DNA of 32,118 nucleotides from Peduovirus P24B2 (NC_049387.1); one strand, 5' to 3'; counted from the first letter of the stretch, positions 182-32,118 are shown. A program made the numbers and translations. The notes: a model not told the origin generated them from the letters alone.

Positions 182-186
182 GATGT

Positions 187-11849: not shown

Positions 11850-11859
11850 GTGAGAAACA

Positions 11860-14595: not shown

Positions 14596-14598
14596 ATT

Positions 14599-15126: not shown

Positions 15127-15347
15127 GTTGTATGATCTCTGGAGTGAGCAAACGTATCTATGGCACAGAGTAAAGCCTAATCTGACAGGCCGCTCTGTGT
15201 CTGGAGTAGATTTTAGTAAAGCATTATTTTATTAGTGCAAATTCTAATCAATACATTTTATGTATATGATATCCTGCAGACTTTAATGACTTGGTTTAGG
15301 CTAACCAGATAACACTGAAGGAATATTTTTGATAATTAAGGTGCGGT

Positions 15348-15941
15348 ATGTTTACTAAGCGACGATTAAAAAATATTAACTGGGAGGCAAGTTCAGTGAT
15401 TCTTGCTATGGTTCTCTTTGTTGGAAATATATTTTATACAAATCATCGTGATGATATAAGCATGGAGGCTGAGAGGGACAGTATCAGAACAATGTTTGCA
15501 TATGAAATCGCTAATAACCATCGCGCTCTCACTTTTCTTGATAAAACGAGATATATTGGCTTTGACGAAAATTCGGAGCATTTTGTTGGCGAGCCTTTTG
15601 CCATTAATGTCAAATCATTAGGGGGGCCTCGCTTACAGATTGCATTAAACCAGAGTGATAAAGTGTTTAAATCCTACTTCAGCGAATTAAGTAAGCTTGA
15701 TAAAGAGGATGTTACTCTTCTTATGGACTATTACCATGAGCAAAGCATCCTGCTGGAGCGTGTAAAATCTACGTTACAGAAGATGAAAAGTGGTAATGAT
15801 ATTAAAGTTGATATTGATGGTTACTTATTAGAAGAACACTTCATGAATGAGCTTAATCTTTCTAATATTTTGCTTAAACGCTATAGCCATTTGTTGTCAC
15901 AACACGCCAAAGAACATAAAACAAAAGATTTACATAATTGA
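15348..15941 (+). CDS. hypothetical membrane-anchored protein (moron at the Z/fun position)
   Basis: 197-aa ORF with SD-like AAGGTG 5 nt upstream of ATG; single N-terminal hydrophobic helix (SSVILAMVLFVGNIFY); strongly AT-rich compared with the flanking G and FI genes; no catalytic motif recognised. Confidence 0.6.
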   Translation: MFTKRRLKNINWEASSVILAMVLFVGNIFYTNHRDDISMEAERDSIRTMFAYEIANNHRALTFLDKTRYIGFDENSEHFVGEPFAINVKSLGGPRLQIALNQSDKVFKSYFSELSKLDKEDVTLLMDYYHEQSILLERVKSTLQKMKSGNDIKVDIDGYLLEEHFMNELNLSNILLKRYSHLLSQHAKEHKTKDLHN

Positions 15942-16147
15942 TAATCTGCTAATGGTTATTCATGGGGTAACTATGTTTTATATGTAATCCAACTCAGATG
16001 AATTATTGATTCTGGATAATAACCGCAGAGCGGCATATACCCTGACAGGCAAATGTCCGCTTCTTGTTCAAAGCAGACCGTCAGATTTGATAACTTTTGG
16101 GCTATGTAAATTGTCAGTCGGAAAATGAGTGAGTTCAAATCAGGACA

Positions 16148-16174
16148 GGCGGGCGAATTGCCCGCCTTTTCTTT
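16148..16174 (+). terminator. rho-independent terminator upstream of FI
   Basis: Perfect stem ggcgggc(16148-16154)/gcccgcc(16160-16166) with 5-nt loop gaatt, followed by TTTTCTTT. Confidence 0.6.
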
Positions 16175-16270
16175 ATCTGTTGTTTCATCCACTGACCAGC
16201 CAGGTCAAATAGCGTCTCATGCTCTGCACAACAGAAAATAGTTGCACCCATTAACCACGGAGTTAAACGG

Positions 16271-17461
16271 ATGAGTGACTATCATCACGGCGTGCAGGTG
16301 CTGGAGATTAACGACGGCACCCGCGTCATTTCCACCGTATCCACCGCCATTGTTGGCATGGTCTGCACGGCCAGCGATGCGGATGCGGAAACCTTCCCCG
16401 TCAATAAACCGGTGCTGATCACCAATGTGCAGAGCGCGATTGCAAAGGCCGGTAAAAAAGGCACGCTGGCGGCATCGTTGCAGGCCATCGCTGACCAGTC
16501 AAAACCGGTCACCGTTGTCGTGCGCGTGGAAGACGGCACCGGCGACGACGAAGAAACGAAACTCGCGCAGACCGTTTCCAATATCATCGGCACCACTGAC
16601 GAAAACGGTCAGTACACCGGACTGAAAGCCCTGATGGGCGCAGAGTCGGTTACCGGCGTTAAACCGCGCATTCTCGGCGTACCGGGACTGGACACCAAAG
16701 AGGTGGCGGTTGCACTGGCATCGGTATGCCAGGAACTGAATGCCTTCGGGTATATCAGCGCATGGGGCTGTAAAACCATTTCCGAGGCAAAAGCCTACCG
16801 TCAGAATTTCAGTCAGCGTGAGCTGATGGTCATCTGGCCGGATTTCCTTGCATGGGATACGGTCACCAGTACCACCGCCACCGCGTATGCCACCGCCCGT
16901 GCGCTGGGGCTGCGTGCCAAAATCGACCAGGAGCAGGGCTGGCATAAAACGCTGTCCAACGTCGGGGTAAACGGTGTTACCGGCATCAGCGCATCTGTAT
17001 TCTGGGATTTGCAGAAGTCTGGCACTGATGCTGACCTGCTGAACGAGGCAGGCGTCACAACGCTGGTTCGCCGCGACGGTTTCCGTTTCTGGGGTAACCG
17101 TACCTGCTCCGATGACCCACTTTTCCTCTTTGAAAGCTACACACGTACCGCGCAGGTACTGGCCGACACGATGGCTGAGGCGCACATGTGGGCTATTGAT
17201 AAGCCCATCACCGCAACGCTGATTCGCGACATCATTGATGGCATCAATGCCAAATTCCGCGAACTGAAAAACAACGGTTATATCGTGGATGGCACATGCT
17301 GGTTCAGTGAAGAAGCCAACGATGCGGAAACCCTCAAGGCCGGAAAACTGTATATCGACTACGACTATACACCGGTGCCTCCTCTCGAAAACCTGACCCT
17401 ACGCCAGCGTATTACTTCAAGATACCTGGCAAGTCTGGTCACCTCGGTTAACAGCAATTAA
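16271..17461 (+). CDS. FI: tail sheath protein
   Basis: 396-aa ORF; P2 gpFI size and N-terminus MSDYHHGVQVLEINDGTRVI. Confidence 0.92.
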   Translation: MSDYHHGVQVLEINDGTRVISTVSTAIVGMVCTASDADAETFPVNKPVLITNVQSAIAKAGKKGTLAASLQAIADQSKPVTVVVRVEDGTGDDEETKLAQTVSNIIGTTDENGQYTGLKALMGAESVTGVKPRILGVPGLDTKEVAVALASVCQELNAFGYISAWGCKTISEAKAYRQNFSQRELMVIWPDFLAWDTVTSTTATAYATARALGLRAKIDQEQGWHKTLSNVGVNGVTGISASVFWDLQKSGTDADLLNEAGVTTLVRRDGFRFWGNRTCSDDPLFLFESYTRTAQVLADTMAEAHMWAIDKPITATLIRDIIDGINAKFRELKNNGYIVDGTCWFSEEANDAETLKAGKLYIDYDYTPVPPLENLTLRQRITSRYLASLVTSVNSN

Positions 17462-17473
17462 GGAGCCTGACCG

Positions 17474-17992
17474 ATGGCAATGCCGCGCAAACTCAAGTTA
17501 ATGAACGTCTTTCTGAACGGCTACAGCTATCAGGGCGTTGCAAAGTCCGTCACGCTGCCAAAACTGACCCGTAAGCTCGAAAACTATCGCGGTGCGGGGA
17601 TGAACGGCAGCGCACCGGTAGACCTCGGCCTTGATGACGATGCGCTGTCAATGGAGTGGTCGCTCGGTGGCTTCCCGGATTCGGTTATCTGGGAGCTTTA
17701 CGCCGCAACCGGTGTGGATGCCGTGCCGATTCGTTTTGCAGGCTCTTACCAGCGCGACGATACCGGCGAAACGGTGGCCGTCGAAGTGGTCATGCGTGGA
17801 CGTCAGAAAGAAATCGACACCGGCGAGGGTAAACAGGGAGAAGACACCGAGTCGAAAATCTCCGTGGTCTGCACCTATTTCCGGCTGACGATGGACGGTA
17901 AGGAGCTGGTCGAAATCGACACCATCAACATGATTGAGAAGGTGAACGGCGTCGACCGGCTGGAGCAACACCGCCGCAATATCGGCCTGTGA
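17474..17992 (+). CDS. FII: tail tube protein
   Basis: 172-aa ORF immediately after the sheath gene; P2 gpFII equivalent. Confidence 0.92.
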   Translation: MAMPRKLKLMNVFLNGYSYQGVAKSVTLPKLTRKLENYRGAGMNGSAPVDLGLDDDALSMEWSLGGFPDSVIWELYAATGVDAVPIRFAGSYQRDDTGETVAVEVVMRGRQKEIDTGEGKQGEDTESKISVVCTYFRLTMDGKELVEIDTINMIEKVNGVDRLEQHRRNIGL

Positions 17993-18048
17993 TTTTCATC
18001 CGGTCAGCCTGGCTGACCGGTTAACCCCGATTCAGAAGTGAGAAAACC

Positions 18049-18324
18049 ATGAACAAAGAAAATGTGATTACCCTGGACAATCCGGTCAAGCGTGGTGAGC
18101 AGGTTATCGAACAGGTCACGCTGATGAAACCTAATGCCGGGACGCTGCGCGGTGTCAGTCTGGCTGCGGTCGCAAACTCCGAAGTCGATGCACTGATTAA
18201 GGTGCTGCCGCGCATGACGGCACCGATGCTGACCGAGCAGGAGGTCGCCGCGCTGGAACTGCCTGACCTTGTGGCGCTGGCCGGTAAGGTGGTCGGTTTT
18301 TTGTCTCCGAACTCGGTGCAGTGA
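18049..18324 (+). CDS. E: tail assembly chaperone E
   Basis: 91-aa ORF between the tube and tape-measure genes; slippery T-TTT-TTG heptamer at 18297-18303 near its 3' end. Confidence 0.85.
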   Translation: MNKENVITLDNPVKRGEQVIEQVTLMKPNAGTLRGVSLAAVANSEVDALIKVLPRMTAPMLTEQEVAALELPDLVALAGKVVGFLSPNSVQ

Positions 18325-18476
18325 CGTTTCCGAAAAATCTGTCGGTCGATGACCTGATGGCAGATGTGGCAGTGATATTTCACTGGCCGCCATCAGAACT
18401 GTATCCCATGAGCCTGACCGAACTCATCACATGGCGCGAAAAGGCGCTCCGGCGAAGCGGAAACACGAATGAGTAA
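18049..18476 (+). CDS. E+E': tail assembly chaperone E+E' (programmed -1 frameshift product)
   Basis: -1 shift at the TTTTTTG heptamer (18297-18303) opens a frame reading ...VTFPKNLSVDDLMADVAVIFHWPPSELYPMSLTELITWREKALRRSGNTNE to a TAA at 18474-18476; total 142 aa, as I recall for P2 E+E'. Confidence 0.7.
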
Positions 18477-20916
18477 CAATGTAAAATTACAGGTATTGCT
18501 CAGGGCTGTTGACCAGGCATCCCGCCCGTTTAAATCCATCCGTACAGCGAGCAAATCGCTGTCGGGGGATATCCGGGAAACACAAAAATCACTGCGCGAG
18601 CTGAACGGTCACGCATCCCGTATTGAGGGATTCCGCAAGACCAGTGCACAGCTCGCCGTGACTGGTCATGCACTTGAAAAGGCACGGCAGGAAGCCGAAG
18701 CCCTTGCCACACAGTTTAAAAACACCGAACGTCCGACCCGTGCTCAGGCGAAAGTGCTGGAATCCGCAAAGCGTGCGGCGGAGGACTTACAGGCGAAATA
18801 TAACCGCCTGACGGATTCCGTTAAACGCCAGCAACGGGAACTGGCCGTTGTGGGAATTAATACCCGCAATCTTGCACATGATGAGCAGGGACTGAAAAAC
18901 CGTATCAGTGAAACCACCGCACAACTTAACCGTCAGCGTGACGCGCTGGCGCGTGTCAGTGCGCAACAGGCAAAACTTAACGCAGTAAAACAGCGTTATC
19001 AGGCCGGAAAGGAACTGGCCGGAAATATGGCCTCGGTAGGCGCTGCCGGTGTGGGGATTGCGGCGGCGGGAACGATGGCCGGAGTTAAGCTGCTGATGCC
19101 CGGTTATGAGTTTGCGCAGAAAAACTCAGAATTGCAGGCCGTGCTAGGAGTGGCAAAAGACTCCGCCGAAATGACCGCACTCCGCAAGCAGGCGCGCCAG
19201 CTCGGCGACAATACCGCAGCCTCGGCAGATGATGCAGCCGGTGCACAGATTATCATTGCGAAAGCGGGTGGAGATGCTGCGGCTATTCAGGCGGCAACGC
19301 CGGTCACGCTGAATATGGCACTGGCGAATCAGCGGTCGATGGAAGAAAACGCGCAACTGTTGCTGGGGACTAAGGCATCCTTTCAACTGTCAAATGATGA
19401 TGTCAGCCATGTGGGCGACGTGTTGTCGGCAACGATGAATAAGTCGGCGGTTGATTTTCAGGGACTCAGTGATGCACTGACTTACCTCGGGCCGGTTGCG
19501 AGGACGGCAGGTGTAAGTCTTGAGCAGGCAGCAGCCATGACAGGTGTGCTGCATGACAATAACATCAGGGGGTCAATGGCGGGGACGGGTAGCAGTGCCG
19601 TTGTCACCCGATTACAGGCACCGACTGGAAAAGCATGGGATGCACTCAAAGAGCTTGGCGTTAAAACCTCGGACAAAAAGGGAAATATGCGTCCGTTGTT
19701 CACCATTCTGAAAGAGATTCAGGCCAGCTTTGATAAACACAAGCTGGGAACGTCTCAGAAGGGGGAATACCTTAAAACCATTTTTGGTGAGGAAGCCCTG
19801 AAATCAGCGAACGTTTTACTGGCAGCGGCAGCAAGCGGAAAACTGGATAAGCTGACCGCCACGCTGAAAGCCTCGGACGGTAAAACGGAAGAGCTGGTTA
19901 AAATCATGCAGGATAACCTCGGCGGTGACTTTAAGGAGTTTCAGTCCGCTTATGAGGCGGTGGGGACTGACCTGTTTGACCAGCAGGAAGGCGCACTGCG
20001 TAAGCTCACTCAGACGGCCACAAAGTATGTGTTAAAACTCGACGGCTGGATCCAGAAAAACAAATCACTGGCGTCAACCATCGGCCTCATTGTCGGTAGC
20101 GCGCTGGCGCTTACTGGCATCATCGGTGCCATTGGTCTTGTAGCCTGGCCGGTTATCACCGGCATCAATGCCATCATCGCGGCAGCAGGCGCAATGGGGG
20201 CAATCTTCACGACGGTTGGCAGTGCTGTTATGACGGCCATCGGGGCGATTAGCTGGCCGGTTGTGGCCGTGGTGGCCGCCATTGTCGCCGGGGCGTTGCT
20301 TATCCGTAAATACTGGGAGCCTGTCAGCGCATTCTTTGGCGGTGTGGTGGAAGGGCTGAAAGCGGCATTTGCGCCGGTGGGGGAACTGTTCACGCCACTT
20401 AAGCCGGTGTTTGACTGGCTGGGCGAAAAGTTACAGGCCGCGTGGCAGTGGTTTAAAAACCTGATTGCCCCGGTCAAAGCCACACAGGACACCCTGAACC
20501 GTTGCCGTGACACGGGCGTCATGTTCGGGCAGGCACTGGCTGACGCGCTGATGCTGCCGCTTAATGCGTTCAACAAACTGCGCAGCGGCATTGACTGGGT
20601 ACTGGAAAAGCTCGGGGTCATCAACAAAGAGTCAGACACACTTGACCAGACCGCCGCCAGAACTCATGCCGCCACGTATGGCACCGGTGGTTATATTCCG
20701 GCGACCAGCTCTTATGCAGGCTATCAGGCTTATCAGCCGGTCACGGCACCGGCTGGCCGCTCTTATGTAGACCAGAGTAAAAACGAATATCACATCAGCC
20801 TGACGGGTGGTACTGCGCCGGGGACACAGCTTGACCGCCAGTTACAGGATGCGCTCGAAAAATACGAGCGGGATAAACGTGCGCGCGCCCGTGCCAGCAT
20901 GATGCATGACGGTTAA
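18469..20916 (+). CDS. T: tail tape measure protein
   Basis: 815-aa ORF; coiled-coil N-terminal half and Gly/Ala-rich hydrophobic central segment typical of tape-measure proteins; P2 gpT position. Confidence 0.9.
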   Translation: MSNNVKLQVLLRAVDQASRPFKSIRTASKSLSGDIRETQKSLRELNGHASRIEGFRKTSAQLAVTGHALEKARQEAEALATQFKNTERPTRAQAKVLESAKRAAEDLQAKYNRLTDSVKRQQRELAVVGINTRNLAHDEQGLKNRISETTAQLNRQRDALARVSAQQAKLNAVKQRYQAGKELAGNMASVGAAGVGIAAAGTMAGVKLLMPGYEFAQKNSELQAVLGVAKDSAEMTALRKQARQLGDNTAASADDAAGAQIIIAKAGGDAAAIQAATPVTLNMALANQRSMEENAQLLLGTKASFQLSNDDVSHVGDVLSATMNKSAVDFQGLSDALTYLGPVARTAGVSLEQAAAMTGVLHDNNIRGSMAGTGSSAVVTRLQAPTGKAWDALKELGVKTSDKKGNMRPLFTILKEIQASFDKHKLGTSQKGEYLKTIFGEEALKSANVLLAAAASGKLDKLTATLKASDGKTEELVKIMQDNLGGDFKEFQSAYEAVGTDLFDQQEGALRKLTQTATKYVLKLDGWIQKNKSLASTIGLIVGSALALTGIIGAIGLVAWPVITGINAIIAAAGAMGAIFTTVGSAVMTAIGAISWPVVAVVAAIVAGALLIRKYWEPVSAFFGGVVEGLKAAFAPVGELFTPLKPVFDWLGEKLQAAWQWFKNLIAPVKATQDTLNRCRDTGVMFGQALADALMLPLNAFNKLRSGIDWVLEKLGVINKESDTLDQTAARTHAATYGTGGYIPATSSYAGYQAYQPVTAPAGRSYVDQSKNEYHISLTGGTAPGTQLDRQLQDALEKYERDKRARARASMMHDG

Positions 20917-20930
20917 GGAGGTGACGAAAA

Positions 20931-21410
20931 ATGATGCTCGCGTTAGGTATGTTTGTTTTTATGCGCCAGACGCTGCCACACCAGACCATGCAGCGTGAAT
21001 CAGATTATCGCTGGCCGTCAAATTCCCGTATCGGTAAACGGGATGCCTTTCAGTTTCTCGGTGTGGGTGAGGATAACATCACGCTTGCCGGTGTGCTTTA
21101 TCCCGAACTGACCGGCGGAAAGCTGACGATGACCACGCTCAGGCTGATGGCAGAGGAAGGTCGGGCGTGGCCGTTGCTGGATGGCACCGGCATGATTTAC
21201 GGCATGTATGTCATCAGCAGGGTGAGTGAAACAGGGAGTATTTTCTTTGCAGACGGCACACCCCGAAAAATTGATTTTACGCTGTCGCTCACCCGCGTTG
21301 ATGAATCACTGGCCGCGCTTTATGGCGATATCGGTAAACAGGCGGAATCGCTCATCGGTAAGGCTGGCAGTATGGCGACCAGATTCACAGGTATGACGGG
21401 GGCGGGATAA
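20931..21410 (+). CDS. U: tail protein U
   Basis: 159-aa ORF after T; P2 gpU equivalent. Confidence 0.88.
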   Translation: MMLALGMFVFMRQTLPHQTMQRESDYRWPSNSRIGKRDAFQFLGVGEDNITLAGVLYPELTGGKLTMTTLRLMAEEGRAWPLLDGTGMIYGMYVISRVSETGSIFFADGTPRKIDFTLSLTRVDESLAALYGDIGKQAESLIGKAGSMATRFTGMTGAG

Positions 21411-22573
21411 TGCTGGATGCACTGACATTTGATGCAGGCAGTACGCTGACGCCGGATTACATGCTGATGCTCGACAGCAGGGATATTACCGGCAATATCA
21501 GCGACCGTCTGATGAGCATGACCCTGACGGATAACCGGGGCTTTGAGGCTGACCAGCTTGATATTGAACTGGACGATGCCGACGGGCAGGTCGGGCTGCC
21601 GGTTCGTGGCGCTGTCCTGACGGTGTATATCGGCTGGAAAGGTTTTGCCCTGGTATGCAAAGGGAAATTTACCGTTGATGAGGTTGAACACCGGGGCGCA
21701 CCGGATGTGGTCACCATCCGCGCCCGGAGTGCAGATTTTCGCGGGACGCTCAATTCCCGCCGGGAAGGCTCATGGCATGACACCACGCTCGGTGCGATTG
21801 TTGAGGCGATAGCCTCCCGTAACAGGCTGGAAGCCAGTGTCGCGCCGTCACTGGCCAGAATTAAAATTCCGCACATCGACCAGTCGCAGGAGTCTGATGC
21901 AAAATTCCTGACCCGCCTTGCAGAACGCAACGGCGGTGAGGTGTCGGTAAAAATGGGAAAACTGTTGTTTCTCAAAGCGGGGCAGGGGGTGACGGCCAGC
22001 GGTAAAAAAATCCCGCATATTACCATCACCCGCAGTGACGGCGACCGCCATCATTTTGCGATTGCTGACCGTGGAGCCTATACCGGCGTAACAGCAAAGT
22101 GGTTACACACCAAAGACCCGAAACCGCAAAAGCGGAAGGTAAAACTGAAACGCAAAAAGAAAGAAAAACACCTGCGCGCACTGGAGCACCCGAAAGCGAA
22201 ACCGGTCAGGCAGAAGAAAGCGCCTAAAGTACCGGAAGCGCGCGAAGGTGAATACATGGCCGGTGAGGCTGATAACGTTTTTGCCCTGACTACGGTATAT
22301 GCCACGAAAGCGCAGGCCATGCGCGCCGCTCAGGCGAAGTGGGATAAACTGCAACGGGGCGTAGCGGAGTTCTCCATCAGCCTGGCTACCGGTCGGGCAG
22401 ATATTTACACGGAAACACCGGTTAAAGTGTCAGGCTTTAAGCGCGTCATAGACGAGCAGGACTGGACAATCACTAAGGTGACACATTTTCTGAATAATAG
22501 CGGCTTCACGACGTCCTTGGAGCTTGAGGTCAGGCTTTCTGATGTGGAGTACGAAACAGAAGATAATGAGTGA
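21410..22573 (+). CDS. D: tail protein D (late gene D)
   Basis: 387-aa ORF with internal Lys-rich segment (KRKVKLKRKKKEKH); P2 gpD size and position before ogr. Confidence 0.9.
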   Translation: MLDALTFDAGSTLTPDYMLMLDSRDITGNISDRLMSMTLTDNRGFEADQLDIELDDADGQVGLPVRGAVLTVYIGWKGFALVCKGKFTVDEVEHRGAPDVVTIRARSADFRGTLNSRREGSWHDTTLGAIVEAIASRNRLEASVAPSLARIKIPHIDQSQESDAKFLTRLAERNGGEVSVKMGKLLFLKAGQGVTASGKKIPHITITRSDGDRHHFAIADRGAYTGVTAKWLHTKDPKPQKRKVKLKRKKKEKHLRALEHPKAKPVRQKKAPKVPEAREGEYMAGEADNVFALTTVYATKAQAMRAAQAKWDKLQRGVAEFSISLATGRADIYTETPVKVSGFKRVIDEQDWTITKVTHFLNNSGFTTSLELEVRLSDVEYETEDNE

Positions 22574-22657
22574 TGTTTTTATTTTATCTGTTTGTTTTAT
22601 AAGGATAAATTAACTAAAATGGCACCATCAACAAAACCGGAAGAGGTGCTCGCGATG

Positions 22658-22873
22658 TTTCATTGTCCTTTATGCCAGCATGCCGCACATGCGCGTACAA
22701 GCCGCTATATCACTGACACGACAAAAGAGCGTTATCACCAGTGTCAGAACGTGAATTGCAGTGCCACGTTCATCACTTATGAGTCGGTACAGCGATACAT
22801 CGTGAAGCCGGGAGAAGTCCACGCCGTAAGGCCGCACCCGTTGCCGTCAGGGCAGCAAATTATGTGGATGTGA
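22658..22873 (+). CDS. ogr: late-gene transcriptional activator Ogr (C4 zinc finger)
   Basis: 72-aa product MFHCPLCQHAAHARTSRYITDTTKERYHQCQNVNCSATF... with CxxC...CxxxxC arrangement; start chosen inside ORF 22592..22873 to match the 72-aa Ogr length. Confidence 0.85.
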   Translation, partial: FHCPLCQHAAHARTSRYITDTTKERYHQCQNVNCSATFITYESVQRYIVKPGEVHAVRPHPLPSGQQIMWM

Positions 22874-22883
22874 TCACAAAAAT

Positions 22884-22909
22884 AGCCCCTCAGTTGAGGG
22901 GCTTTATTT
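22884..22909 (+). terminator. rho-independent terminator after ogr
   Basis: Stem agcccctc(22884-22891)/gaggggct(22896-22903), loop agtt, followed by a T-rich tract TTATTTA. Confidence 0.6.
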
Positions 22910-22910
22910 A

Positions 22911-23147
22911 TGGTCGATGTGGACGCTATGTGGACAGTGGTTGATATAAATCCATTTATATCATCAGGTTAGGTGCTTTTTTGTGACACCATCCCTGTCT
23001 TCCCCCACATGATGTGGGGGTTTTTTTTATCAATTACTTACATGCAATCAAAAGTAAAAACAGTCACTTATCGAAAGCTGTAAGGGTTTGGAGTGGTTTC
23101 AAAATTTCTTGAGTGTGGACACTATGTGGACACTCAGAGGGGGAAAT
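22911..23147. other. attP: attP region (arm-type repeats, IHF-consensus site, core candidate)
   Basis: Tandem ATGTGGAC repeats at 22917-22924 and 22928-22935, and TGTGGACA repeats at 23115-23122 and 23125-23132, flank the region; TATCAATTACTTA (23029-23041) matches the IHF consensus WATCAANNNNTTR; hairpin plus T8 at 23002-23028; abuts the int 3' end. Confidence 0.5.
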
Positions 23148-24128
23148 TTATAACGTCACTCCGCCTTTTAGTGGATTCAGAGCGACGGCATTTTGCAGGT
23201 AGTCAGGCGCAAGGTGCGCATAGGCCATCGTCTGCTGAATGCTCGCATGTCCCAGAATCTGTTGCAGTGCGATTATATTGCCCCCGTTCATCATGAAATG
23301 GCTTGCGAATGTATGCCGCAGGATGTGGGTTGCCTGATTGGGTGGTATATCAGGTTTCACTCTGCGTAAAATCCCGCAAAATTTCTCATAATCAACTTTG
23401 AATAATTTGGCGCTTGCCTCCTCTTTAACTTTTTTCTCCAGTTCCTCAGAAATCGGCACGGTTCGCTTTTTACCGTTTTTGGTTTTCAGGAAGGTAACCC
23501 TGCAATTTGTAATCTGTGCTGGTTTTAGCGTGGCAACTTCCGTCCATCTTCCTCCAGTGCTCAGACATAAAAGCGCGACAAGTAAGTCATCACCAGCCAA
23601 AACATTTAACAGTTTTTCGATTTCTGCTTTTTCCAGGAACGTCATTTCAGGGTTGGCCTCCGCCAGTGGCGGCAGTCCGTGAATTGGGTGTTGCCCGGAA
23701 AATTCATCCAATTGAATTAATTTTGTGAACATGCCGGATAATCGGTACATGTCACGGTTTATCGTTGCGGCACTGATACCATCACGTAGTCGTATGGAAC
23801 GATAATCCATCAAAGCCCTTTTGCTCATCCGGCTCACTGGTATATCACCTATGCCGCTGATGGTTTTGAGTAGATGATTAAACTCTTTTGTTCCATGCTC
23901 GTGGTTTTGCCCGTGATATTTCCACCAGATGTCCAGCAACTCACTCAAAGTTCGGCGGTCTGCTCGCTGGCCTCCCCATTCTTTCTGACTGGCATTGGCG
24001 ATTGTGTATCGCTCAAATGCTAGTGCTTCAGCTTTTCTTTCGAATTTCCTGCGGATGCGTTTTCCGTCGCGACCGCGAGGTCTAATGTCCACTTCATAGC
24101 GACCATCATCGAGCTTCTTAATTGCCAT
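23148..24128 (-). CDS. int: tyrosine integrase
   Basis: ORF 23148..24158; start placed at MAIKKLDDGRYEVDIRP; C-terminal region HxLRHTFAS...Y (catalytic-Tyr region) typical of tyrosine recombinases; P2 Int position downstream of C. Confidence 0.9.
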   Translation of the reverse strand: MAIKKLDDGRYEVDIRPRGRDGKRIRRKFERKAEALAFERYTIANASQKEWGGQRADRRTLSELLDIWWKYHGQNHEHGTKEFNHLLKTISGIGDIPVSRMSKRALMDYRSIRLRDGISAATINRDMYRLSGMFTKLIQLDEFSGQHPIHGLPPLAEANPEMTFLEKAEIEKLLNVLAGDDLLVALLCLSTGGRWTEVATLKPAQITNCRVTFLKTKNGKKRTVPISEELEKKVKEEASAKLFKVDYEKFCGILRRVKPDIPPNQATHILRHTFASHFMMNGGNIIALQQILGHASIQQTMAYAHLAPDYLQNAVALNPLKGGVTL

Positions 24129-24197
24129 AAGAAAGCCCTCCGGCGCTGTATTCACCATCTTGGTAGCAAATGGTGAAAATGTAATCTTTATATAGAG

Positions 24198-24491
24198 TTA
24201 GCCAATCCTTTTCGCGGAGTGGTTGGACTCTGTTGACTCTGGCCCAATGTGCGCGAGAGCCGGTGCGATTTGTCCTGCGTCCGGCGCGGTTTTATCTGTC
24301 ATAAGCCATAGAGCATATTTTTGGAATGTGGGATGCATAGTGATTTTTAGCAAAGCTGTGCCACCGGGTTCAAAGTTTCCTCCTTCATATTTTTTAAGTG
24401 TGCTTAGCGGTAACTCTATGATTTCACAGAATTTTGATTGGCTTAGCCCTTCAGCCTCACGCAAGGCCTTAATCTTTTCGCTTAATTTCAT
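24198..24491 (-). CDS. C: immunity repressor C
   Basis: 97-aa ORF with helix-turn-helix-like N-terminus and the segment GQIAPALAH that I recall from P2 C (99 aa); divergent from cox. Confidence 0.8.
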   Translation of the reverse strand: MKLSEKIKALREAEGLSQSKFCEIIELPLSTLKKYEGGNFEPGGTALLKITMHPTFQKYALWLMTDKTAPDAGQIAPALAHIGPESTESNHSAKRIG

Positions 24492-24627
24492 TTGACATGG
24501 TGCCTATATAGGGACTAAATTCCCTCAAAACTGGAACCTATATAGGTTCCATTGATTTGAGAATAAACCAGCGTCTAAACGGTTTTGAGTGGTTTAGAAA
24601 GGGCTGGATCCTATGAGGGTACCATAT
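24492..24627. promoter_or_regulatory. C/cox lysogeny-lysis switch region (candidate Pe/Pc promoters and operators)
   Basis: Consensus -35 TTGACA at 24492-24497 with a possible -10 CTAAAT at 24515-24520 (rightward, Pe-like); two copies of the palindrome CCTATATAGG at 24503-24512 and 24537-24546 (second inside an 18-bp perfect palindrome GGAACCTATATAGGTTCC, 24533-24550); motif GGTTTTGAGTGGTTT at 24581-24595. Confidence 0.5.
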
Positions 24628-24900
24628 ATGGACGCTGAAAATTATGTGATTCAGTATCCGCTTGATGCGGTTCATGTGGATAAATTTGCTGATTTATTAG
24701 GGAAGCCAAAGACAGCCGTCAGTGAAATGGTGAAGGCAAATAAATTACCAATTATTGAATTGCGTGATCCTTGCAAACCGAAGGCTCGTGCCGGTGAAAA
24801 ATGGGTTTTCATTCCTGAGTTTAATCGCGCTGTACGTGAGGCGTTTTATAACCGACCGGTTGAACAGCGTGATGCATGGCTTTTGTGGATGGGGTTGTGA
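24628..24900 (+). CDS. cox: Cox excisionase/repressor
   Basis: ORF 24613..24900; start placed at the second Met (MDAENYV, 90 aa) because of the better SD (GAGGG) and P2 Cox being about 91 aa; first gene of the rightward early operon. Confidence 0.75.
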   Translation: MDAENYVIQYPLDAVHVDKFADLLGKPKTAVSEMVKANKLPIIELRDPCKPKARAGEKWVFIPEFNRAVREAFYNRPVEQRDAWLLWMGL

Positions 24901-24902
24901 TT

Positions 24903-25073
24903 ATGAATGAGCCGCGTTGTATTGCTCAGTTACTGCGTAACGAAAGCCCCAGGGCGATTGACTTCACCATCACCCACGGGAAGGGGCGCAAGGGAATCAT
25001 TATCCGCACCAAAAAGCAGAGTCCGTTAAAGAAGGCTCTGACCTTTCTGAAAAGCCGGAGGGTATGGAAATGA
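24903..25073 (+). CDS. hypothetical protein (P2 early-region small ORF)
   Basis: 56-aa ORF between cox and B in the position of a small P2 early ORF; start chosen at MNEPRCIAQLL. Confidence 0.45.
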   Translation: MNEPRCIAQLLRNESPRAIDFTITHGKGRKGIIIRTKKQSPLKKALTFLKSRRVWK

Positions 25074-25570
25074 CAGTGATGACGCTTAATCTCGTTGAAA
25101 AACAGCCAGCAGCTATGCGCCGGATAATTGGTAAGCATCTTGCCGTCCCTCGCTGGCAGGATACATGTGATTATTATAATCAGATGATGGAGCGCGAACG
25201 GTTAACGGTTTGCTTTCATGCGCAGTTAAAACAGCGTCACGCAACGATGCGTTTTGAAGAAATGAACGACGTCGAACGTGAACGGCTGGTTTGTGCAATT
25301 GATGAACTGCGTGGGGCATTCTCAAAACGCCGTCAGGTTGGCGCAAGTGAGTATGCATATATTAGTTTTTTAACAGTCAGTCAGCGTCGTACTTTATTTA
25401 TGCATGCAGGATTGACTGAAAAAGAATTCAACCAGCCATACTGGCGAATTAATGAAGAATCATGTTACTGGCGTGATGCTTTATTCCGTGCATTACGTGA
25501 ATTATTCAGCCTGTTTGAGTACGCACCGACAATTCTGACGTCGGTAAAACCAGAGCAATATCTGCATTAA
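25064..25570 (+). CDS. B: replication protein B
   Basis: 168-aa ORF in the P2 gpB position (about 166 aa); exact start among the N-terminal Met codons uncertain. Confidence 0.8.
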   Translation: MEMTVMTLNLVEKQPAAMRRIIGKHLAVPRWQDTCDYYNQMMERERLTVCFHAQLKQRHATMRFEEMNDVERERLVCAIDELRGAFSKRRQVGASEYAYISFLTVSQRRTLFMHAGLTEKEFNQPYWRINEESCYWRDALFRALRELFSLFEYAPTILTSVKPEQYLH

Positions 25571-25633
25571 ATAATTAACCAGAGTTTTTAACGCACTTAA
25601 TCGTGCGGGGCTTCTTTTTGCCTGGAGAAAGTC

Positions 25634-25858
25634 ATGCATACAGTTTCTGAAAATCAGTGCGGTAAATACGCATTACTGCTGCAACAGGCCAGAACCGAAG
25701 CACAGGCCGACGCTGCGACGCGCTTTTCTTCTCATCTTGACGCCATGATTCGCCACATCACAAAGGCGGAGTTATCCCGCGTGGAGATAGTCGAGCTGCT
25801 CAGTCAGGAGTCGGAAAAATTTCACAACATCGGATTGTCTCGCGGGGAGGTGCTTTGA
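25634..25858 (+). CDS. hypothetical protein (P2 orf80-like)
   Basis: 74-aa ORF in the conserved run of small early ORFs between B and A. Confidence 0.6.
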
Positions 25859-26160
25859 TGTCCTGTTCTCATTCAGTTGTATTACTGAACAATGCCTTAA
25901 AAATCGCCGTTATGAAAAATGGCGATTTGTCTCTTATTCAACTTGGTCTTGATAAAGAAAAACGCGAAATAACTGAATCTGTTATCGCGATTTATCAGAG
26001 TGAATTAAACCTCCTGTCTGATGTGGTCAATTTACTTGTTAAACGCGCTGTATTTCACAAGCAAATTTCCTCCGTGGATGAACTGACGAAATTAACGACA
26101 GAAATCGCCAGCTATTGCGCTGATGAATTTAAAAAACTGAACGACAAAAGGAACTGGTAA
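25855..26160 (+). CDS. hypothetical protein (P2 orf81-like)
   Basis: 101-aa ORF, start overlapping the preceding stop (operon-like coupling). Confidence 0.6.
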
Positions 26161-26384
26161 TGCCGGACAACGTAGATTTTATTCAGGAACAACAGGCTGA
26201 ATTACTGGAGCGCCAGATTAACGCGGCAAGGGTAAAACATTGTGGTGCTTCTGCGCTGGTTTGCGAAGAGTGTGACGCGCCAATACCTGCTGCCCGTCGT
26301 GCGGCTTATCCGTCAGCCACGCGTTGTGTTTCCTGTCAGTCAGTCTTTGAAGCAAAAAACAAACATTACCGGAGAACGGCATGA
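26160..26384 (+). CDS. TraR/DksA-family C4 zinc-finger protein (P2 orf82-like)
   Basis: 74 aa with CxxC (CEEC) and CxxC (CVSC) pairs about 20 aa apart, typical of TraR/DksA C4 zinc fingers. Confidence 0.7.
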   Translation: MPDNVDFIQEQQAELLERQINAARVKHCGASALVCEECDAPIPAARRAAYPSATRCVSCQSVFEAKNKHYRRTA

Positions 26385-26656
26385 GTATTCGTATTGAAAT
26401 TGGCGAACGTTATGTCGTTACCAGTGACAGCTTTCAGTTTATTCTCCACGAGAAAAAGAGAGCTGAAAGCGGTAAAAATGCCGGTCAGGAATGGCTGGCG
26501 GTAGTTGGTTATTACCCGAAATTAAGCCAGCTCGTTTCCGGCCTGATGCATCACGATATTCTGACCGGAAGCGCAAAATCTTTTGCTGATTTAAACGCGC
26601 AGGTTGAGCAACTCAGCAAGCGTTGTTCAGAGGCTTTTGGCTCACATGGCCGTTAA
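26381..26656 (+). CDS. hypothetical protein (P2 orf83-like)
   Basis: 91-aa ORF, translationally coupled to neighbours, immediately upstream of A. Confidence 0.6.
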   Translation: MSIRIEIGERYVVTSDSFQFILHEKKRAESGKNAGQEWLAVVGYYPKLSQLVSGLMHHDILTGSAKSFADLNAQVEQLSKRCSEAFGSHGR

Positions 26657-28955
26657 AGCCTCCGGGCATTTTGTCCCTCCGTCAGCATTTGCCGCAGGCA
26701 CCGGTAAGACGTTTACCGGTGCTTATGCATGGAACGCGCCACGCGAGGCCGTCGGGCGCGAAAGACCCCTTACACGTGACGAGATGCGTCAGGTGCAAGG
26801 TGTTTTATCCACGATTAACCGCCTGCCTTACTTTTTGCGCTCGCTGTTTACTTCACGCTATGACTACATCCGGCGCAATAAAAGCCCGGTGCACGGGTTT
26901 TATTTCCTCACATCCACTTTTCAGCGTCGTTTGTGGCCGCGCATTGAGCGTGTGAATCAGCGCCATGAAATGAACACCGACGCGTCGTTGCTGTTTCTGG
27001 CAGAGCGTGAGCACTATGCGCGCCTGCCGGGAATGAATGACAAGGAGCTGAAAAAGTTTGCCGCCCGTATCTCATCGCAGCTTTTCATAATGTATGAGGA
27101 ACTCTGCGATGCCTGGGTGGATGCGCATGGCGAGAAAGAATCGCTGTTTACGGATGAGGCGCAGGCTCACCTGTATGGTCATGTTGCTGGCGCTGCACGT
27201 GCTTTCAATATTTCCCCGCTCTACTGGAAAAAATACCGTAAAGGGCAGATGACCACGAGGCAGGCATATTCTGCCATTGCCCGTCTGTTTAACGATGAGT
27301 GGTGGACTCATCAGCTTAAAGGCCAGCGTATGCGCTGGCATGAGGCGTTACTGATTGCTGTCGGGGAGGTCAATAAAGACCGTTCTCCTTATGCCAGTAA
27401 ACATGCCATTCGTGATGTGCGTGCGCGCCGCCAGGCAAATCTGGAATTTCTTAAATCGTGTGACCTTGAAAACAGGGAAACCGGCGAGCGCATCGACCTT
27501 ATCAGTAAGGTGATGGGCAGTATTTCTAATCCAGAAATTCGCCGGATGGAGCTGATGAACACCATCGCCGGTATTGAGCGTTACGCTGCCGCAGAGGGTG
27601 ATGTGGGGATGTTTATCACGCTGACCGCGCCGTCAAAGTATCACCCGACTCGTCAGGTCAGAAAAGGCGAAAGTAAAACCGTCCAGCTAAATCACGGCTG
27701 GAATGATGAGGCATTTAATCCAAAGGATGCGCAGCGTTATCTCTGCCGTATCTGGAGCCTGATGCGCACGGCATTCAAGGATAATGATTTACAGGCCTAC
27801 GGTTTGCGTGTTGTTGAACCACACCACGACGGAACGCCGCACTGGCATATGATGCTTTTTTGTAATCCACGCCAGCGTAACCAGATTATTGAAATCATGC
27901 GTCGCTACGCGCTCAAAGAGGATGGAGACGAAAGAGGAGCCGCGCGAAACCGTTTTCAGGCAAAACATCTTAACCGGGGCGGTGCTGCGGGGTATATCGC
28001 GAAATACATCTCAAAAAATATCGACGGCTATGCACTGGATGGTCAGCTCGATAATGATACCGGCAGACCGCTGAAAGATACTGCCGCGGCTGTTACCGCA
28101 TGGGCGTCAACGTGGCGCATCCCGCAATTTAAAACGGTTGGTCTGCCGACAATGGGGGCTTACCGTGAACTACGCAAATTGCCTCGCGGCGTCAGCATTG
28201 CTGATGAGTTTGACGAGCGCGTCGAGGCTGCACGCGCCGCTGCAGACAGTGGTGATTTTGCGTTGTATATCAGCGCGCAGGGCGGGGCAAATGTCCCGCG
28301 CGATTGTCAGACTGTCAGGGTCGCCCGTAGCCCGTCGGATGAAGTTAACGAGTACGAGGAAGAAGTCGAGAGAGTGGTCGGCATTTACGCGCCGCATCTC
28401 GGCGCGCGTCATATTCATATCACCAGAACCACGGACTGGCGCATTGTGCCGAAAGTGCCGGTCGTTGAGCCTTTGACTTTAAAAAGCGGCATCGCCGCGC
28501 CTCGGAGTCCTGTCAATAACTGTGGAAAGCTCACCGGTGGTGATACTTCGTCACCGGCTCCCACGCCTTCTGAACACGCCGCAGCAGTGCTTAATCTGGT
28601 AGATGACGGTGTTATTGAATGGAATGACCCGGTGGTCGTGAGGGCGCTCAGAGGCGCATTAAAATACGGCCTGAGAAGACCAAACCGTCAGCAAAGAAAC
28701 GGAATACCGTTAAAACCGCATGAAATAGCACCATCGGCCAGGCTGACCCGGTCAGAACGAATGCAAATTACCCGTATCCGTGTTGACCTTGCTCAGAACG
28801 GTATCAGGCCTCAGCGATGGGAGCTTGAGGCGCTGGCGCGTGGGGCGACCGTAAATTATGACGGGAAACAATTTACGTATCCGGTTGCTGATGAGTGGCC
28901 GGGATTTTTACAAACAGAAATTGTTTTTGGGATTAATAAGTTATCTCTAAGCTAA
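26646..28955 (+). CDS. A: replication initiation protein A (rolling-circle endonuclease)
   Basis: ORF 26604..28955; start placed at MAVKASGHFVPPSAFAAG as in P2 gpA; contains HWHMMLF and YIAKYISK-type segments consistent with HUH-type initiator motifs. Confidence 0.9.
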   Translation: MAVKASGHFVPPSAFAAGTGKTFTGAYAWNAPREAVGRERPLTRDEMRQVQGVLSTINRLPYFLRSLFTSRYDYIRRNKSPVHGFYFLTSTFQRRLWPRIERVNQRHEMNTDASLLFLAEREHYARLPGMNDKELKKFAARISSQLFIMYEELCDAWVDAHGEKESLFTDEAQAHLYGHVAGAARAFNISPLYWKKYRKGQMTTRQAYSAIARLFNDEWWTHQLKGQRMRWHEALLIAVGEVNKDRSPYASKHAIRDVRARRQANLEFLKSCDLENRETGERIDLISKVMGSISNPEIRRMELMNTIAGIERYAAAEGDVGMFITLTAPSKYHPTRQVRKGESKTVQLNHGWNDEAFNPKDAQRYLCRIWSLMRTAFKDNDLQAYGLRVVEPHHDGTPHWHMMLFCNPRQRNQIIEIMRRYALKEDGDERGAARNRFQAKHLNRGGAAGYIAKYISKNIDGYALDGQLDNDTGRPLKDTAAAVTAWASTWRIPQFKTVGLPTMGAYRELRKLPRGVSIADEFDERVEAARAAADSGDFALYISAQGGANVPRDCQTVRVARSPSDEVNEYEEEVERVVGIYAPHLGARHIHITRTTDWRIVPKVPVVEPLTLKSGIAAPRSPVNNCGKLTGGDTSSPAPTPSEHAAAVLNLVDDGVIEWNDPVVVRALRGALKYGLRRPNRQQRNGIPLKPHEIAPSARLTRSERMQITRIRVDLAQNGIRPQRWELEALARGATVNYDGKQFTYPVADEWPGFLQTEIVFGINKLSLS

Positions 28956-29077
28956 GACGCTCAAAGCAAGAGATTATTTTACTGTACGTAGCCATCTGGA
29001 ATTGTGGCTGTGTTAAAACGCTCGAGATTTTTTGGATATCCAGTTATACTCCGCTTAGAAATCATTCGGAGACTAAG

Positions 29078-30125
29078 ATGGCGGTAAAAGTTGTTGATCT
29101 TTTTTGCGGTGCTGGCGGTTTAACGCACGGCTTACATTTGGCCGGATTGGACGTTGTCGCAGGCATTGATTTAGAAGGTGAGTGTCGTGTTGCATACGAA
29201 AGCAATAATGATGCACTTTTTATTGAAAAAGATATATCTCTGGTGACAAAAGATGAAATCGAAAATCTTTTTGAAGGGGCAAGTGTTAAAGTATTGGCCG
29301 GATGTGCACCTTGTCAGCCATTTTCTAAATATACTCAGGGAAAAGATAAAAAAAATGATAAAAAGTGGCCGTTATTATATGAGTTTGAACGTTTAATAAA
29401 AGACACGAAACCAGAAATAGTTACAATGGAAAACGTTCCTGATGTGACAAAACATTCTGTCTATGATGATTTTTATAATACCTTAATAGCATTGGGTTAT
29501 TATGTTTGGGCAAATAAGATTGAATGTGTAGATTTTGAGGTTCCGCAAAACAGAGTGAGGCATGTATTACTCGCATCTAAATTTGCGCCGATTTCTCTGA
29601 TGAAACCACAAACATCGGTAAAGCTGACAGTTAGGGATTGCATTGGTAATTTACCTTCGATTGAAGCGGGACAAGCAGATCCAAAAGACCCTCTCCATAA
29701 GGCGAGTAGATTGAGTGAAATTAATCTCAAACGTATTCTACATTCAAAACCGGGGGGGGACATGGAGGGATTGGCCTGCTGAATTAATCGCTTCATGTCA
29801 TGCCAAGAAAAGTGGGCAGGGATATGCCAGTGTTTATGGTCGTATGTCTTGGGATAAACCGAGTCCAACGATAACTACACTTTGTTATGGTTTTGGTAAT
29901 GGACGTTTTGGTCATCCCGAGCAGCATCGTGCAATCTCACTTAGGGAAGCAGCATTACTTCAAACGTTTCCTGTTACATATTCATTTACCCAACCGGGCG
30001 AGCCGATCAAAATGAAAAATGTCGGGCGTATGATAGGTAATGCTGTTCCTGTAAACTTAGGTAAAGCGATTGGTCTTTCAATAGTACATCATTTGAAAGA
30101 GTTTCACCCCGCCGCTCTTAAATAA
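29078..30125 (+). pseudogene. DNA (cytosine-5) methyltransferase, Dcm-like, split by a frameshift in a G8 tract
   Basis: ORF 29078..29782 carries motif I (FCGAGG), motif IV (GCAPCQPFS), motif VI (ENV) and motif VIII (QNRVRH); ORF 29715..30125, in another frame, carries RMSWDKPSPTIT and motif X (GNAVPV); the frames meet at GGGGGGGG 29752-29759; SD GGAG upstream of the ATG; AT-rich. Confidence 0.8.
29752..29759 (+). repeat. homopolymeric G8 tract at the methyltransferase frameshift site
   Basis: cgggggggga read directly; loss of one G would fuse the two methyltransferase frames into a product of about 348 aa. Confidence 0.9.
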
Positions 30126-30823
30126 GCCTGAGTATCAAGATAAGTTTGTATATTTTCAAGGATGCAGTTGAGATAATGAAAAACTTCATCCTTCATTTCT
30201 GTTAGTGTATCAATAGATGTATCTCTGCCTTTGTTTCTAAATGATTCAGAACCATGAGCAAGGTCGTTTCTGGCCTTTTTTATTGGAAGTAAATTGCAAC
30301 CATTTCGCGTTATTTCTGAATCTGTATCTGCTGAGAAGCCATATTTTTCAGCGACTTCTCTAATTTTTCTAGCATCAACATTTCCAGAAAATAACGGATT
30401 TTTATTTGATTGGATAAGTTTTTTGTGAGCGTTTAGCCACTCTTTAAATATAACTTTTGCAATGTTCCCTTGTGAGAAATCTATTTTCCCATTTGGTGAT
30501 TGTAAACTATGAAATGCTACTCTTGTAAGGTTTTCATTTACAGTGTCTGCACATAATGATTCATTAGACATTAAAACATTATGAATGTCTTCTATTGCAT
30601 TGGAAATGGTTGCTTCAATGAGATTGTACAATATAATAAATGCATTAGCCTTTAAAATATGAGTCATGTCAATATCAATGGGTTGTTGTATAGGCGCATC
30701 GCTTGTATTCTCTTTATAGACTAGAGATGGTTTTTTGTTTATTAGTAACTGAATGAATGAGAAGTATTCATTAATATCTTGCATTCTTTCTTGGAAAAGA
30801 ATTTTACTTGTCATCTCCTCCAT
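30104..30823 (-). CDS. hypothetical protein, putative HEPN-like nuclease
   Basis: 239-aa ORF 10 bp downstream of the DUF262 gene on the same strand; C-terminal KKARNDLAHGSESF fits the R-x4-H(G) HEPN motif; very AT-rich; 3' end overlaps the methyltransferase 3' end by 22 nt (convergent). Confidence 0.5.
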   Translation of the reverse strand: MEEMTSKILFQERMQDINEYFSFIQLLINKKPSLVYKENTSDAPIQQPIDIDMTHILKANAFIILYNLIEATISNAIEDIHNVLMSNESLCADTVNENLTRVAFHSLQSPNGKIDFSQGNIAKVIFKEWLNAHKKLIQSNKNPLFSGNVDARKIREVAEKYGFSADTDSEITRNGCNLLPIKKARNDLAHGSESFRNKGRDTSIDTLTEMKDEVFHYLNCILENIQTYLDTQAYLRAAG

Positions 30824-30833
30824 TTACTTGGCC

Positions 30834-31979
30834 TCACTCCATATTTTCATCTTCATTTTCATCTTCGTCGACAATATTTTCTGGAATGTCTTTCCCAAGC
30901 AACTTGTTTTTTACATATTCAATGCGTGCTTTAACTTTGGGTTTAGAGTTGCTGGCATCTGAACGTGTGTGCGTGATAAACTCTTTCGAGTTGATCCAGT
31001 CATCAATATTTTTAGGAACTAAATTGGGTTCTTCCTCTAGTGCTAATGTTGCACCGACGGCAAGAGCTTCGAAACGAATCCTAGGAACAGTGGTGGCGTT
31101 TTTCACCTTTCTGAAACCATTTGGGAAATGTGTATTAATGAATTGGCACATTTTATGAAATTTTTCCGCCAGCATAGCTGCGTTTTCATCTGTATATTCG
31201 GCATTTTTACGTTTTAAATAGGTTGTAAGAAATTCATCAACGCTTTTTCTGAAATCAAGATATTCTTCAGTGTAGGCAAAGTAGCGTAGTGCCAATTCTG
31301 GATATTCAGAGCGACGTTTTCTTGCATCTCCCAAAGGACAGATGCTATGAAATAGAGGATCTTCGGAAATTTCATTGATAAATGCAAGGAATGGCCCATC
31401 ATGGCTACCTTGCCGTTGTTCCATTGTTGTTAGTTTTTTTCCGCCAGTATTCAGACGGTCAAAAATTTCCCTTCTTGTCTCTTCGTCACAATGTTCTGTA
31501 AGTTCAATCATTCGAATAGTTTTTCTATCAAAACGTAGGCGACGGGGAGTACTGAAATCAGAATATTTAAAACCATTGGCTGTGACTAATTTCTGCAGGC
31601 CTTCAAGAGTTAGTTTGTTATTGGTAAATTGGTGTAGGGTTCTTATTCGTTGGCTACCGTCAACAATTTCAAGTCTACCTTCATTTTCACCTGAACCAAT
31701 ATCGGCAACGAATATGTAAGGTATAGGAAGATTTAAAAGCAGAGATTCAATGAAACGGGATTTTTGCTTGTTGTTCCAGATAAACTCCCTTTGGTAGTCA
31801 GGTATAAAAAGCTCTGCCTCATCTTCTTCAAGACCATTCTGAAATTTGTCCACAATAACACTTATCGGGAACTCACGTATTTCATGGTCAGTGATTTTTT
31901 GCATTTCAACTATGCTTTGATCTAAAAGCTCCTTTTCTTCTTTAGTTTTTGGGGTATGTTCTGCTTTTTTTCTCGCCAT
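30834..31979 (-). CDS. DUF262 (ParB/sulfiredoxin-like, GmrSD N-terminal-type) domain protein
   Basis: 381-aa ORF with IPDYQREFIW and EIVDGSQRIRTL, matching the DUF262 hallmarks ([IL]PxFQRxYxW and DGQQR); no HNH/DUF1524-like C-terminal motif seen; acidic C-terminal tail DEDENEDENME; SD AGGA upstream; AT-rich. Confidence 0.7.
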   Translation of the reverse strand: MARKKAEHTPKTKEEKELLDQSIVEMQKITDHEIREFPISVIVDKFQNGLEEDEAELFIPDYQREFIWNNKQKSRFIESLLLNLPIPYIFVADIGSGENEGRLEIVDGSQRIRTLHQFTNNKLTLEGLQKLVTANGFKYSDFSTPRRLRFDRKTIRMIELTEHCDEETRREIFDRLNTGGKKLTTMEQRQGSHDGPFLAFINEISEDPLFHSICPLGDARKRRSEYPELALRYFAYTEEYLDFRKSVDEFLTTYLKRKNAEYTDENAAMLAEKFHKMCQFINTHFPNGFRKVKNATTVPRIRFEALAVGATLALEEEPNLVPKNIDDWINSKEFITHTRSDASNSKPKVKARIEYVKNKLLGKDIPENIVDEDENEDENME

Positions 31980-32118
31980 GAGCTTATTATCCTACTATGC
32001 GTGTGATTGCATTAAATTGCATGTTAAACAAAAGCATAATCTATATCAGTCAATCAGCCAGTGGCAAGGTGTTGTGATTACAATGCAACTGCATTAGAAC
32101 CGACTCATGAAGCGGGCG

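Follow-up and report, generated by a model that had tools for sequence, protein, structure and literature searches.

An isolated +1 frameshift at an apparently accidental homopolymer hot spot in the C5-cytosine methyltransferase gene of a HEPN/DUF262 cassette of Peduovirus P24B2

Phasevarions of Helicobacter, Campylobacter, Neisseria and Haemophilus involve poly-G tracts in restriction-modification genes. These tracts are longer than the one described here, are conserved among strains, and are found in both the ON and the OFF state at high frequency. Operons that combine a MAE_28990-family HEPN protein, a ParB (DUF262) protein and a DNA methylase are known from computational description only (Anantharaman et al. 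2013, PMC3710099). PD-T4-2, which comprises a DUF262 protein and a HEPN (PF18735) protein, has validated activity against T4, in K-12 as well as in its native strain, and several systems of the screen that yielded it sit at the P2 hotspot between gpA and portal (PMC9519451). The hotspot itself has been described as a defense hotspot between these two genes (PMC9519451, PMC9122126). In Menshen (NsnABC), the NsnB ATPase and the inPIN-nuclease effector NsnC are both required (PMC12065111).

Here, we analyzed a 32,118-nucleotide stretch of DNA from Peduovirus P24B2 (NC_049387.1), referred to in its entirety as the window, in which a C5-cytosine DNA methyltransferase gene is frameshifted. We conclude that this is an isolated frameshift at a seemingly accidental G7 hot spot, in a gene of a known kind and within a cassette of a known kind. 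The case carries a caution, in that a homopolymer frameshift seen in a single record mimics a contingency switch until it is set against the population and against orthologues. Both comparisons point to an ordinary null allele or an error.

The methyltransferase gene (29078..30125, + strand) carries a +1 frameshift at a G8 homopolymer (29752..29759, + strand), where the sequence reads GGGGGGGG and the Pro-Gly-Gly codons CCG GGG GGG are joined by one surplus G, the wild-type tract being G7. The first-pass annotation had proposed that this run splits the gene into two frames, and the two ORFs, 29078..29782 and 29715..30125 (136 aa), do overlap at the G run. The N-terminal frame (29078..29782, + strand; 234 aa; VUD38046.1 in the source record) encodes motifs I, IV, VI and VIII and reaches into the variable region, then continues through 7 out-of-frame codons to a TGA at 29780-29782 and ends in PGGDMEGLAC. 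The C-terminal part of the gene lies in the other frame (29760..30125, + strand) and holds motifs IX (RMSWDKPSPTIT) and X (GNAVP), which G8 throws out of frame. Substitution of G7 for G8 joins both frames into a single 348-aa ORF; tract length sets the reading frame, with G7 in frame and G6 and G8 out of frame. The 234-aa product lacks motifs IX and X and should therefore be an inactive, truncated methyltransferase.

The G7-repaired protein matched Pfam PF00145 over aa 4-336 (E = 1.8e-54; 185.8 bits, cut-off 22) and TIGR00675 of the dcm superfamily (125.8 bits, cut-off 100.65). Its motifs follow the canonical order: I at aa 9-14, IV (PCQ) at 78-80, VI (ENV) at 118-120, VIII (QNRVR) at 157-161, IX at 255-266 and X (GNAVP) at 320-324. 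The PGG encoded by the tract occupies aa 225-227, in the variable region that separates motif VIII from motif IX, which agrees with the earlier claim that a complete and ordered motif set is split inside the target-recognition region. A PDB sequence search with the repaired protein gave DNMT1 and M.HaeIII as the best matches (E about 1e-17 to 1e-21), and among PDB sequences only such distant relatives, and no close solved or characterized one, were found. Among other phages, Moraxella phages Mcat24-32 (KR093648-KR093656) encode an intact methyltransferase with 59% identity to the repaired protein, and Escherichia phage PhiR44_1 (PV340563.1), which is P2-like and was grown on E. coli C, encodes an intact one with 56%. 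A weak sigma-70-like promoter match (29022..29050, + strand; a consensus match only) precedes the methyltransferase start, in a region where the number of sigma-70-like sites is not above shuffle expectation, and GGAG is found 7 nt ahead of the ATG. In dinucleotide-preserving shuffles of the window, 67 of 100 had at least as many G7 matches as the window itself; it is thus the frameshift that is notable and not the length of the run.

In order to place the tract in its population, the exact predicted product of each tract length was looked up in a 15-billion-protein collection. This collection calls genes itself, listing, for instance, the G6 product of CP027550 although RefSeq marks it as a pseudogene, and off-frame copies are therefore not hidden by annotators' pseudogene handling. 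The number of contigs with the exact product was 410 for G7, one for G8 (P24B2) and one for G6 (E. coli CP027550), and these counts may contain one strain from more than one source; the exact products of G4, G5, G9, G10 and G11 were absent from the collection. The single ORF of about 348 aa that had been predicted upon removal of one G is thus a protein that exists in exactly that form on 410 public contigs. At the DNA level, the repaired gene is identical to the gene annotated as WP_001533788.1 in two complete E. coli genomes, and four near-identical copies of the gene differ at the tract only. A scan anchored on both flanks, with tract length left free, recovered three further copies in metagenome and viral contigs, all of them G7, and a tract-flank pattern scan of species-representative genome contigs gave no match. 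Ten partial proteins from fragmented assemblies were also fetched, and all eight that span the tract read PGGTW.

A search with the product of the C-terminal fragment added three further off-length contigs. Two of them (L035 and L036) have G5 together with five other one- or two-base homopolymer deletions each, and the third (L034, a 2.6-kb contig) has G6 and no further indel. As an internal control we used the A8 run of the same gene (29348..29355, + strand; encoding KDKKND), which is intact in P24B2. A7 variants of this run occur on two contigs, and the one examined (L037) has six homopolymer deletions in 5.7 kb. The A8 run is retained as A8 in the alleles of 89% and 86% identity; it is longer than the wild-type G7 run and no more variable. 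In total, off-frame tract lengths make up about 0.5%, and roughly 1% at most, of copies. The off-frame copies are mostly noise, with the G run no worse than the A8 run, and the G8 of P24B2 is the sole +1 length on record.

Conservation of the tract was then considered apart from conservation of the protein. The motif PGGTW[RK]DWP is conserved at the protein level and the homopolymer is not. The codons for Pro-Gly-Gly are CCT GGA GGT in the allele with 89% protein identity, CCC GGA GGT in the 86% allele, CCA GGA GGG in that of about 81%, CCT GGG GGA in the 80% allele and CCT GGT GGT in the 73% allele. Among 36 orthologues from viral contigs that have the motif, 21 codon combinations for Pro-Gly-Gly were seen; the G run is three or shorter in 34 of the 36, and G7 is found only in two contigs of P24B2's exact allele. 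CCG GGG GGG is thereby confined to the P24B2-type allele when set against the five other alleles and those 34 orthologues. The G7 run owes its existence solely to the codons, CCG GGG GGG, that this allele happens to use for the conserved Pro-Gly-Gly. A tract selected for switching would be conserved, so its absence elsewhere suggests an accident of codon choice. From the codon comparison, the G7 run would be an accidental mutational hot spot and not a maintained on/off switch.

These two comparisons bear directly on programmed phase variation, in which the G tract would reversibly toggle the methyltransferase and perhaps manage a conflict with the DUF262 and HEPN proteins. The tract is indeed a homopolymer within an ORF, G5, G6, G7 and G8 are all present in public data, and any such run is able to slip and revert at some low rate. 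We nevertheless regard this reading as very improbable, given that the off-frame lengths fall mostly in contigs rich in homopolymer deletions, that the A8 run varies at the same low level, and that the tract is missing from all other alleles and orthologues despite the conserved protein motif. For a contingency tract, a wild-type length of 7 is also short compared with the known examples, and E. coli possesses mismatch repair. The first-pass annotation's phase-variable switch accordingly finds no support in either the counts of G7, G8 and G6 contigs or the distribution of the homopolymer. Its further suggestion, of a conflict or toggle between the methyltransferase and the DUF262 module, fares no better. 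The intact methyltransferase is a constant partner of intact HEPN and DUF262 genes, and this constant co-occurrence argues against either arrangement. Of the contigs that encode a gpA identical to that of the window, 24 were read and all 24 have the same cassette genes; the 348-aa methyltransferase stood beside the HEPN and DUF262 genes in all three places displayed. Programmed ribosomal or transcriptional frameshifting at G8 was dismissed, since G8 occurs in one record only.

Long-term decay, by which the methyltransferase would be a pseudogene heading for loss, was another option that had been offered. The gene is frameshifted, and the G6 copy of CP027550 lies in a prophage (NZ_CP027550.1, 3662500-3698000) in which not only the methyltransferase (G7 to G6) but also the tape-measure gene (G5 to G4, corresponding to window position 18564) has lost a base. 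In P24B2, however, a second lesion is absent and the rest of the gene is 100% identical to the intact allele. Over the 9.1 kb around the gene (window 22985-32118; 9,134 bp), the sequence differs from the natural prophage of CP059907 by one base, which is the tract. Defense pseudogenes are in addition rare in P2-like prophages (2026 survey, PMC13586616). Decay is, on this evidence, the least probable of the readings that we considered, and scarcely to be credited for P24B2. For CP027550 itself, the alternative of a noisy assembly was considered and found not to be firm, in that the adjoining 50 kb of chromosome contain no frameshifted core gene, and both losses may reflect true decay of this prophage. 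In that event, a null methyltransferase leaves a lysogen viable while its HEPN and DUF262 genes are intact.

There remains the question of whether the extra G is a mutation or a consensus error. The window is the temperate phage P2_4B2, which corresponds to LR595873 (supplement of Mathieu et al. 2020, PMC6969025) and was spontaneously released from an infant-gut E. coli isolate, plaque-purified, amplified, sequenced by Illumina MiSeq and assembled with SPAdes (PMC6969025). That the phage is truly G7 with an intact gene, and that the extra G arose as a homopolymer error in sequencing or assembly, is unlikely in our judgment, yet it is the alternative to which we give the most weight. SPAdes was run with --only-assembler, hence with no read error correction (PMC6969025), the other copies examined outside noisy assemblies are all G7 except for two G6, and the cos end of the P24B2 record is garbled. 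On the other side, the data are Illumina MiSeq with no long reads, and the homopolymer errors in noisy public contigs are deletions only, whereas P24B2 has an insertion. The assembly is also clean elsewhere. Identity to natural prophages is 99.88-100% across window 11410-23031, and the closest two are gap-free, one (L027) being identical over 10,767 bp and the other (L025) having one mismatch in 11,622 bp. Over about 20.7 kb compared with the closest natural relatives, which includes A8, T8 and several A7/T7 runs, the tract is the sole indel; this lack of any other indel makes a genuine extra G in the sequenced stock more likely.

The cos end was examined as a separate matter. Window 1-17 holds a cos overhang of GGCGAGGCGGAAAGCAC (17 nt), whereas the overhang is GGCGAGGCGGGGAAAGCAC (19 nt) in the P2 reference and in all 29 related loci; the difference includes GG in the P24B2 record and GGGG in 29 of 29 relatives. 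Two sibling records of the same study were compared, of which P2_4E6b is garbled in the same 19 nt in a different manner and P2_4A7b is canonical. The aberrant cos end is probably an artefact of physical genome ends. We rejected it as a sign of G-run errors in the record, the anomaly being limited to the 19-nt end and the sibling being garbled otherwise. A phage-specific protein search for an independent assembly of P2_4B2 returned natural prophages only. From the otherwise indel-free comparison, we infer that G8 is probably real in the sequenced stock and not a consensus error. The artefact that the first-pass annotation listed among its options keeps some weight from the nearly uniform G7 elsewhere, and a real mutation is preferred given the otherwise indel-free assembly.

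The reading that we favor, with moderate confidence, is a single +1 slippage (G7 to G8) in the P2_4B2 isolate, recent and isolated, and not a switch. The natural state of the methyltransferase is intact with a G7 run, and under this proposal one slip would have shifted the frame in P2_4B2 to yield the 234-aa product. Strain 4B2, the donor, may already have had the slip in its prophage, or a single-plaque bottleneck may have fixed it. Given E. coli frameshift rates, the chance that a +1 slip of a G7 run is fixed neutrally in one plaque purification is small, so that a real mutation implies either a pre-existing null allele in the donor or some selection. A null allele in the donor prophage is plausible because about 0.5% of public copies are off-frame. 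Of the options originally set out for this locus, a one-off slip or an artefact is what is left, and switch, decay and toggle are unsupported.

Selection in the laboratory would provide another route to a real mutation. Genes for m5C methylases are poorly tolerated in mcrBC+ K-12, and an m5C-marked phage could have been restricted by a K-12 indicator (through McrBC, McrA or Mrr), such that slip mutants with a null methyltransferase displaced the wild type. For loss of function, the G7 run offers the easiest target in the gene. The indicator MAC1403 differs from MG1655 solely in its replaced hsdR, and P2_4B2 passed through plaque purification and amplification (PMC6969025). MG1655 itself (NC_000913.3, 4574000-4594000) has mcrC, mcrB and mrr beside hsdR, and MAC1403 should still possess McrBC, McrA and Mrr. 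However, the text of PMC6969025 does not name the indicator, MAC1403 or strain C, that was used for P2_4B2, and the target sequence of the methyltransferase has no lead from any close solved or characterized relative. Nor is there a sign of avoidance in nature: K-12-type mcrB occurs in about 11% of complete E. coli genomes, in none of the three genomes with the P24B2-type allele (three only, which gives no power) and in one of only four genomes with an intact related allele of 77% nucleotide identity. We consider this explanation improbable. If it were true, the accidental G7 run would have given the phage a way out of methyl-dependent restriction, and isolation on such strains would bias phage collections against m5C-modifying phages.

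MAC1403 has been described as being without DNA restriction activity (PMC6969025). A "restrictionless" indicator that has methyl-dependent restriction genes could skew recovery toward certain temperate phages and certain alleles. In the study that used MAC1403, m5C or otherwise methylated phages could be under-recovered or selected for loss of the methylase.

The methyltransferase gene forms the first part of a three-gene cassette (29078-31979). The cassette lies between the P2 gpA replication endonuclease gene (26646..28955, + strand), which marks the left border of the defense hotspot, and the cos end of the window; portal and terminase are at window 1-1500, and in prophage relatives the gene order is gpA-cassette-portal. 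Every allele examined has the cassette between gpA and portal, in P2- or 186-like prophages from records named Escherichia, Shigella, Klebsiella and Erwinia. A heavily degraded P2 remnant (L016; GCA_019840975.1, JAINEL010000039.1), in which the integrase abuts a truncated gpA and most structural genes are gone, still holds an intact three-gene cassette of the 73% allele. The G+C content of the cassette is 33-40%, compared with 51% for the window and 53% for gpA, and this low value is consistent with horizontally acquired mobile cargo.

The first-pass annotation had placed the methyltransferase beside a DUF262 module. The module is indeed nearby, with the qualification that the direct neighbor is a HEPN gene and DUF262 comes next after it. 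The HEPN gene (30104..30823, - strand) encodes a 239-aa protein of the MAE_28990 family with an RNDLAH (Rx4H) motif, which matched PF18737 (E = 7.6e-18; 65.9 bits) and PF18735 (E = 7.6e-07; 29.6 bits, cut-off 28.4) and no PADLOC model. It is convergent with the methyltransferase gene, the 3' ends overlapping by 22 nt (30104-30125). A 22-nt 3' overlap is also present in the 89%, 86% and 80% alleles (L010-L013, L018), and the 73% allele (L014) has a 29-nt gap. The DUF262/GmrSD_N (ParB-like) gene (30834..31979, - strand) encodes a 381-aa protein with a DGSQR motif that matched PF03235 (E = 4.7e-28). The GmrSD_N domain (aa 52-190) was the only one found, with no DUF1524 nuclease domain detected in the 381 aa. 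Among PADLOC models, this protein matched NsnA best (4.9e-55) and also PD-T4-2_A (9.2e-35). The exact HEPN protein is found on 278 contigs and the exact DUF262 protein on 221.

Loci of DUF262 relatives were collected by an alignment-based scan of viral contigs (n = 59). A HEPN gene is adjacent in 53 of these, and 48 have a convergent C5-methyltransferase as well. Of the 11 loci without a methyltransferase, three are truncated at a contig end, a further four encode a very distantly related DUF262 protein, and the remaining four are DUF262+HEPN pairs (L082, L083, L089 and L092; DUF262 identity 34-41%, HEPN adjacent), for which no C5-methyltransferase of the P24B2 family was found within 5 kb. 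This two-gene form suggests that the DUF262+HEPN pair can exist without the methylase. The full C5-methyltransferase/MAE_28990 HEPN/DUF262 cassette is abundant in P2/186-like prophages of Enterobacterales. As a working model, judged from domain content, the methyltransferase would mark self DNA, the DUF262 protein would sense DNA status and the HEPN protein would act as effector. Methyltransferase-null copies with intact partners (P2_4B2, CP027550 and the G6 contig L034), if real, suggest that, as an antidote, the methyltransferase is dispensable.

In comparison with known systems, the P24B2 methyltransferase resembles the poly-G methyltransferases of phasevarions in having a G run within its ORF whose length sets the reading frame. 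Unlike the phasevarion tracts, the P24B2 tract is allele-specific and its off-frame copies amount to about 1% or less. The NsnA match of the DUF262 protein brings Menshen to mind, and that assignment was rejected: NsnB and NsnC are absent, the next genes being the 239-aa HEPN gene and then the convergent methyltransferase. With GmrSD, BrxU and SspE, which are type IV-like enzymes, the DUF262 protein shares the N-terminal GmrSD_N domain and the DGxQR motif; a GmrSD-like assignment was also rejected, as no DUF1524 domain was detected in the protein. The effector of the P24B2 module is likely the separate HEPN protein. The DUF262 and HEPN pairing recalls that of PD-T4-2. The DUF262 protein of P24B2 matches PD-T4-2_A (PDLC04027) over aa 59-356 against positions 55-357 of the 363-position profile, and the HEPN protein passes the PF18735 cut-off. 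On the other hand, no PADLOC model matches the P24B2 HEPN protein, the DUF262 protein scores higher against NsnA than against PD-T4-2_A, and PD-T4-2 has been described by its DUF262 and HEPN proteins with a methyltransferase unmentioned, whereas the P24B2 cassette has a tightly linked C5-methyltransferase. The same three families as in the operons of Anantharaman et al. (PF18737, PF03235 and PF00145) are adjacent in P24B2, with the difference that the P24B2 copy of the methylase is frameshifted. The methyltransferase-HEPN-DUF262 cassette is a known association, and it is located at a known P2 defense hotspot.
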